NCBI RefSeq assembly: GCF_001677475.2 | Contig: NZ_CP015229.1 | From: Escherichia coli | GTDB lineage: Bacteria; Pseudomonadota; Gammaproteobacteria; Enterobacterales; Enterobacteriaceae | DNA: 64,000 nt | Reading direction: 5' to 3' (one strand) | In this document: piece by piece, positions 33,567 through 34,477 of the stretch | How the letters are laid out: the number at the start of each line of letters is the position of its first letter | Position numbering within the stretch: the first letter of the stretch is position 1 | Position numbers and translations under genes: made by a program | Notes under the pieces: model-generated | Databases searched by the model: none | Told to the model about the DNA's origin: nothing | The model's input: the letters and a program-made list of their open reading frames with translations, nothing else

Positions 33567-34477
<911 letters not shown>

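Follow-up and report, generated by a model that had tools for sequence, protein, structure and literature searches.

The djlC-hscC intergenic region of Escherichia coli assembly GCF_001677475.2 holds an insertion sequence (IS) with an in-frame TAG in its transposase frame. The question raised by this locus is whether the element can still move by itself and, if it cannot, whether it is better regarded as a domesticated or as a decaying copy. A preliminary description, based on the letters of the window (the whole 64,000-nucleotide stretch of contig NZ_CP015229.1 analysed here), proposed that one changed base has created a nonsense codon between the DNA-binding part of the transposase and its DDE catalytic part. 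The copy would thereby be non-autonomous unless amber suppression occurs.

Results

The element is a complete IS1397 in a REP palindrome

The element spans positions 33044-34475 on the plus strand (1432 bp) and is the only IS1397 copy in the window. With copies named 'IS3-like element IS1397 family transposase' by PGAP it shares 99.6-99.8% identity. The IS was matched in 3496 of the 5426 complete E. coli genomes searched, with a near-full-length copy in 1707 of them. IS1397 is divided into two sub-families that are ~1.3-1.6% apart, and the window copy belongs overall to sub-family 1, from whose copies it differs at 3 to 8 of the 1432 nt, compared with 19-23 for sub-family 2 (including CFT073). 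The left terminal inverted repeat (33044-33068, plus strand) starts with TG and matches the reverse complement of the right repeat (34451-34475, minus strand) at 21 of 25 positions. The termini (TGAACTG...TGGACA) are the same as in intact copies and have the TG...CA ends of the IS3 family, in which a duplication of 3-4 bp is expected. Here the 4-bp duplication TTAT can be read directly at 33040-33043 and again at 34476-34479, directly 3′ of the right IS end (both plus strand). By every structural test applied, the element is IS1397, of the IS150 group within the IS3 family.

The IS lies in the loop of a REP/PU palindrome, its insertion target, whose left arm (33025-33037) and right arm (34480-34492) form an inverted repeat of 13 nt that is 92% complementary. 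When the empty site was rebuilt by joining the flanks through one TTAT, the contiguous REP hairpin was found between djlC and hscC in 4375 E. coli genomes. PMC1525189 presents IS1397, with reference to Bachellier, Clement, Wilde and Hofnung, as a REP/PU-specific IS of E. coli, and states the REP specificity of its insertion; the targeting of a REP loop by the window copy fits this. Features in common are orfA and orfB, the A6G heptamer for frameshifting, the DD(35)E triad, ends of the TG...CA type and a duplication of 4 bp. The difference lies in codon 252 of OrfAB, which is TAG and not CAG in the window copy, so that the catalytic domain cannot be made. The region is collinear with E. coli 042 at ~98% identity, other than 158 extra nt in a djlB-like J-domain gene (29552-29709) and the lack, at 40769-40936, of a 2.2-kb rhomboid-family protease gene that is present between gltI and lnt in E. 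coli 042.

One other complete genome, that of strain GF131 (locus extract 1505-2936), also has IS1397 in the djlC-hscC REP; an intact copy that reads CAG sits there in the same loop, in the same orientation and with the same TTAT. However, the flanks of the two strains differ by 1.7% whereas the IS differs by only 0.4%. Because of this disparity a shared ancestral insertion is unlikely, and the comparison suggests that this REP has been hit more than once, by independent insertions.

An amber codon interrupts OrfAB ahead of its catalytic core

The first frame, orfA (33095-33616, plus strand), is intact and runs from ATG 33095 to a TGA at 33614-33616. Its product of 173 aa has two HTH_28 domains and a C-terminal part that resembles a leucine zipper, and 13047 blocks of the assembly collection contain exactly this OrfA sequence. 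The orfB frame, in -1 phase to orfA, is open from 33508 and has its natural TAA at 34441-34443. A -1 programmed frameshift heptamer, A_AAA_AAG (33568-33574, plus strand), forms part of the run GGAAAAAAAG at 33565-33574 and is in phase with orfA, whose zero-frame codons here are AAA and AAG. The element therefore has the two ORFs and in-phase slippery heptamer of an IS3-family member, and 'programmed frameshift' is how PGAP annotates near-identical copies. Where the preliminary description wrote of an A6G site, the canonical heptamer is indeed there and in phase, but the actual run consists of seven A's followed by G.

The conceptual OrfAB fusion has 449 residues and, with Q restored at codon 252, reaches 388.5 bits on NCBIfam NF033516 (IS3 family transposase), for which the cutoff is 160. 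Pfam domains on OrfAB are HTH_28 (8-57 and 64-113), HTH_21 (210-263), rve (286-384, E = 5.4e-21) and rve_2 (391-443). The catalytic triad is made up of D295 (33976-78), D355 (34156-58) and E391 (34264-66), with 35 residues between the second D and the E. The rve domain and DD(35)E arrangement of an IS3-family transposase are thus present, but encoded 3′ of the stop. A search of PDB sequences with the restored OrfAB gave no relative of solved structure at E<=0.001. Among distinct elements, IS150 and ISKpn8 (IS150 group, IS3 family) come closest: they share ~53% amino-acid identity over the OrfB part and have an identical domain order; their DDE residues and invariant LM motif align with those of the window IS. 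They are nonetheless different elements, with Thr at the position equivalent to Q252.

The premature amber TAG (33847-33849, plus strand) is OrfAB codon 252, in the same frame as the continuation from the heptamer, and is the sole stop in the -1 frame ahead of the natural TAA. The surrounding sequence reads ...VRKLMQ*LGLKSP... and, as the codon is CAG (Gln) in intact copies, the change is a single C-to-T transition at 33847. In these respects the preliminary description was right, as it was in placing all the DDE residues 3′ of the stop. It erred in assigning the stop to a conserved linker between domains, given that the TAG falls inside HTH_21, ~12 residues ahead of the end of that domain and 34 residues ahead of the rve core. 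Moreover, residue 252 is itself variable. Across six aligned IS150-group transposases (window OrfAB, IS150, ISKpn8, ISKpn38, Variovorax IS3 and ISLla3) it is Q/T/T/E/G/K, with a sense codon in every relative, whereas L249, M250 and L255 are invariant. After the frameshift the part of the orfB frame that can be translated (33574-33846, plus strand) covers OrfAB residues 161-251, including most of HTH_21 (residues 210-263 = 33721-33882), so that OrfAB has 251 residues here against 449 in intact copies. The severed C-terminal part (33850-34443, plus strand) comprises residues 253-449 and the TAA, with the rve core at 33949-34245.

Contrary to the earlier view that GTG 33868 is the only start downstream of the stop, there is also an in-frame ATG at 33904 (M271). 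The GTG has no Shine-Dalgarno-like sequence in the 20 nt 5′ of it (AGCTCGGCCTGAAGTCTCCT), and the ATG has just a weak GGGGA three bases 5′. Gene callers on an identical draft contig start at ATG 33904, giving a 179-aa product, and exact-product look-ups of the 191-aa GTG-start fragment (as translated reference or with M first) returned no match. Products from either start would be without every DNA-binding domain, and there is no support for a split, self-complementing transposase.

Codon 252 encodes glutamine in intact copies

Full-length IS1397 copies were aligned over codon 252. In 15 of 16 comparators from the two sub-families the base at 33847 is C and not T, in what is a non-random sample because two of the copies were picked for shared rare alleles. 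CAG was found in GF131 (the intact copy at the same insertion site, annotated with a programmed frameshift), in M7424 and in 13 further copies. Twelve comparators have an undisturbed frame at this point and all encode Gln, and 11 of the 12 yield an uninterrupted 449-residue OrfAB. The preliminary description had named alignment to IS1397 as its check, and CAG is indeed the codon in copies that PGAP annotates as intact programmed-frameshift transposases. The PGAP name 'IS3 family transposase', lacking 'IS1397', was dropped as a marker of pseudogenes since two copies so named are intact programmed-frameshift CDSs.

In the 5426 complete E. coli genomes, a 71-nt query with the TAG at its centre had 4787 matching places, spread over 1556 genomes. 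Among the matches listed, one record matched at 100% over the full length (strain Ch1), the other listed rows having one mismatch each. The Ch1 copy (NZ_CP127316.1 4920745-4922093) has the same C-to-T change at the same codon and the same 251-residue stub as the window copy, and is annotated by PGAP as a pseudogene ('programmed frameshift; internal stop'). Active reference copies sharing the TAG would have spoken against the preliminary description, and the other TAG copy is not of that kind. The Ch1 copy carries 33261G, 33440T and 33639T, markers also present in the copy of strain 50579417, which mark another IS1397 sub-lineage. Because the Ch1 copy belongs to a different sub-lineage, the same CAG-to-TAG change most likely arose twice, independently in the Ch1 and window lineages, as judged from these alleles. 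Unlike the window copy, the Ch1 copy (locus extract 2232-3663) interrupts an Rhs element, where it has duplicated 3 bp (TCC); an IS to which REP specificity is ascribed has here inserted outside a REP.

Decay of IS1397 by other lesions was also seen. The copy of strain N3 has lost 1 nt and that of CFT073 5 nt, whilst two copies on OY856296.1 have gained 2 nt. Like the window copy, these are full-length elements with intact ends and an OrfAB broken by a small lesion; their lesions, however, are frameshifts at other positions, and that of the window copy is a nonsense codon. Unrelated small lesions across copies are the usual pattern of neutral IS decay.

Small indels are seen repeatedly at certain short stretches when different IS1397 copies are compared, namely the loss of 5 nt and the gain of TA around 33658-33662, the loss of one G at 33896 (in a GGGG run) and the loss of one G at 34393. 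Some of these may be homopolymer errors of long-read sequencing and not real lesions. An A at 33608 of the window copy, for which an exact 71-nt match was found in 1 of 1720 genomes, was considered as a second private mutation and rejected, as it is the normal allele of sub-family 2 (including CFT073). In the window copy this allele (OrfA ...KSSRA as opposed to ...KSSGA) could be ancestral or a small conversion tract.

The TAG allele in draft assemblies of the clone

Two draft assemblies of the same clone contain the TAG, although they are possibly not independent of the assembly of the window. Contig NJSK01000068.1 (GCA_002516285.1), located through the exact 179-aa product that starts at ATG 33904, matches window positions 33784-39670 (5887 nt) at 100% identity, TAG included. 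On contig ABBDLL010000043.1 (GCA_019140695.1) the IS is identical at all 1432 positions, again with the TAG, and is joined to the same hscC flank. The exact DjlC and HscC alleles were each found on 23 draft contigs with two neighbourhood types per gene, and the two representative djlC contigs both terminate inside the IS. Therefore, the clone that carries the insertion is one of which many isolates have been sequenced.

A second IS1397 occurs in the clone, in the REP that separates phr from dtpD. In the relative GCA_012665465.1 (locus extract 5464-6895) it is an intact copy whose OrfAB has 449 aa and whose codon 252 reads CAG; seven positions distinguish it from the window copy (33608, 33847, 33936, 34098, 34115, 34245 and 34312). 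In GCA_002516285.1 the phr contig stops 63 nt into the left end of IS1397 (locus extract 5464-5526), and the left-flank contigs also break off 63 nt into the IS. Draft contig breaks were found at 33586, 22 nt ahead of 33608, and at 33784, 63 nt ahead of 33847. These are the places where forks between two such copies would fall, from which we infer that the T at 33847 is specific to the hscC-linked copy in the short reads.

Contig ABBDLL010000043.1 joins ybgA-phr-REP to the TAG-bearing IS (100% identical to the window copy) and then to hscC. This junction may be a chimeric path through 564 nt common to the two copies, or a real IS-mediated tandem duplication or excised circle. The gene neighbourhood on the hscC side of this contig is common to 14 contigs.

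Discussion

The sequence comparisons point to a pseudogenised copy of IS1397 that is, very probably, a nonsense-mutated, non-autonomous and decaying relic. IS1397 inserted in the REP loop between djlC and hscC, giving rise to the TTAT duplication, and a later C-to-T change at 33847 converted Gln252 of OrfAB into an amber codon ahead of all three DDE residues. The resulting allele is rare elsewhere and is inherited within the clone. The copy is expected still to make OrfA (173 aa) and, after the frameshift, a 251-residue OrfAB stub comprising the two HTH_28 domains, the zipper region and most of HTH_21. Because this stub would be without the rve/DDE core, the copy would be unable to cut or join its own ends, and mobilisation could occur solely in trans, using OrfAB from an intact copy such as the phr-dtpD IS1397 of the same clone. 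IS3-family transposases act preferentially in cis. With its terminal inverted repeats, orfA and frameshift signal unchanged, the copy would thus be a non-autonomous relic, movable only by OrfAB supplied in trans. The claim that it is non-autonomous is in this way supported by a TAG that cuts the DNA-binding part from the DDE part. Of the two fates offered in the preliminary description, decay is borne out and domestication is not.

Two other explanations would leave the element with a working transposase. The T could be an error of sequencing or assembly, the true base being C and the gene intact, as a one-base C/T miscall can always occur and IS copies are repeats that assemblers can mix. We regard this as very unlikely. 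The T is present in a draft contig identical to the window over 33784-39670 and in a second draft whose IS is identical over 1432 nt, and the contig breaks are as expected if short reads assign T to the hscC-linked copy as against a second copy with another base. Given the same T in the draft assemblies, resequencing is unlikely to reveal a sense codon at 33847. Alternatively, the T may be real but the stop leaky, with UAG read by a suppressor or near-cognate tRNA-Gln often enough to leave an attenuated but autonomous element. E. coli reads through UAG at a low basal rate, for the most part inserting Gln, the wild-type residue at 252 and the one that supE or near-cognate tRNA-Gln(CUG) would insert. 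Furthermore, the stop is followed directly by C, and UAG-C is a relatively weak terminator context. Any residue inserted would probably be tolerated, since the position is variable among IS150-group transposases. A trace of full-length OrfAB from read-through is therefore possible, but its yield would be very small and its activity negligible, because read-through would have to be multiplied with an already low frequency of frameshifting. The window includes the tRNA cluster glnX-glnV-metU-glnW-glnU-leuW-metT at 48008-48711, in which ARAGORN identified four tRNA-Gln genes (48008-48518, minus strand; context only) with the anticodons CTG, CTG, TTG and TTG, all wild type. No tRNA-Gln with a CUA anticodon is present at 48008-48518, so no supE-type suppressor is encoded in the window; other suppressor loci lie outside it. 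The caveat of amber suppression, raised in the preliminary description, has thereby been checked for glnV, glnX, glnU and glnW. Nor does the TAG appear to be a programmed read-through or recoding signal, because the stop is not conserved among functional copies: C is found in 15 of the 16 copies compared and TAG in one other copy among the matches listed. Autonomy through a leaky stop is accordingly another reading to which we give very little credence.

A further possibility is that the stub is of use, having been kept as a DNA-binding but catalytically dead repressor of the intact sister copy, that is, as a domesticated or regulatory element. The stub retains the HTH_28 domains, the zipper and most of HTH_21, and the clone does have an intact second copy on which it could act. 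Truncated OrfAB derivatives of IS911 bind IS ends, and OrfA-type products modulate transposition in the IS3 family. However, a regulator of this type is already supplied by orfA, and the allele is limited to one clone and one independent occurrence, with no spread and no sign of selection. The unrelated frameshifts in other copies are likewise what neutral loss would produce. Domestication would be recognised by a fixed locus with the IS ends lost, or by purifying selection; in this case both ends are intact and the site is empty in 4375 genomes. Regulatory retention is hence extremely unlikely. Beyond simple loss of function, the stub might be a dominant-negative end-binder that damps the phr-dtpD IS1397, or else insertion of Gln at the weak UAG-C might keep the copy barely alive; that one or other of these holds is improbable.

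We therefore favour a decaying, pseudogenised IS1397 copy. Premature stops in IS copies form a known and routine category, already flagged by annotation pipelines, and this one involves no new mechanism. The occurrence of CAG-to-TAG in two IS1397 sub-lineages is to be expected of a frequent C-to-T transition in non-essential mobile DNA, and the importance of the finding beyond annotation is little. For annotation, the copy should be labelled as an IS1397 pseudogene with an internal stop and should not be counted as an active transposase. IS1397 activity in this clone would depend on other copies, such as that between phr and dtpD.
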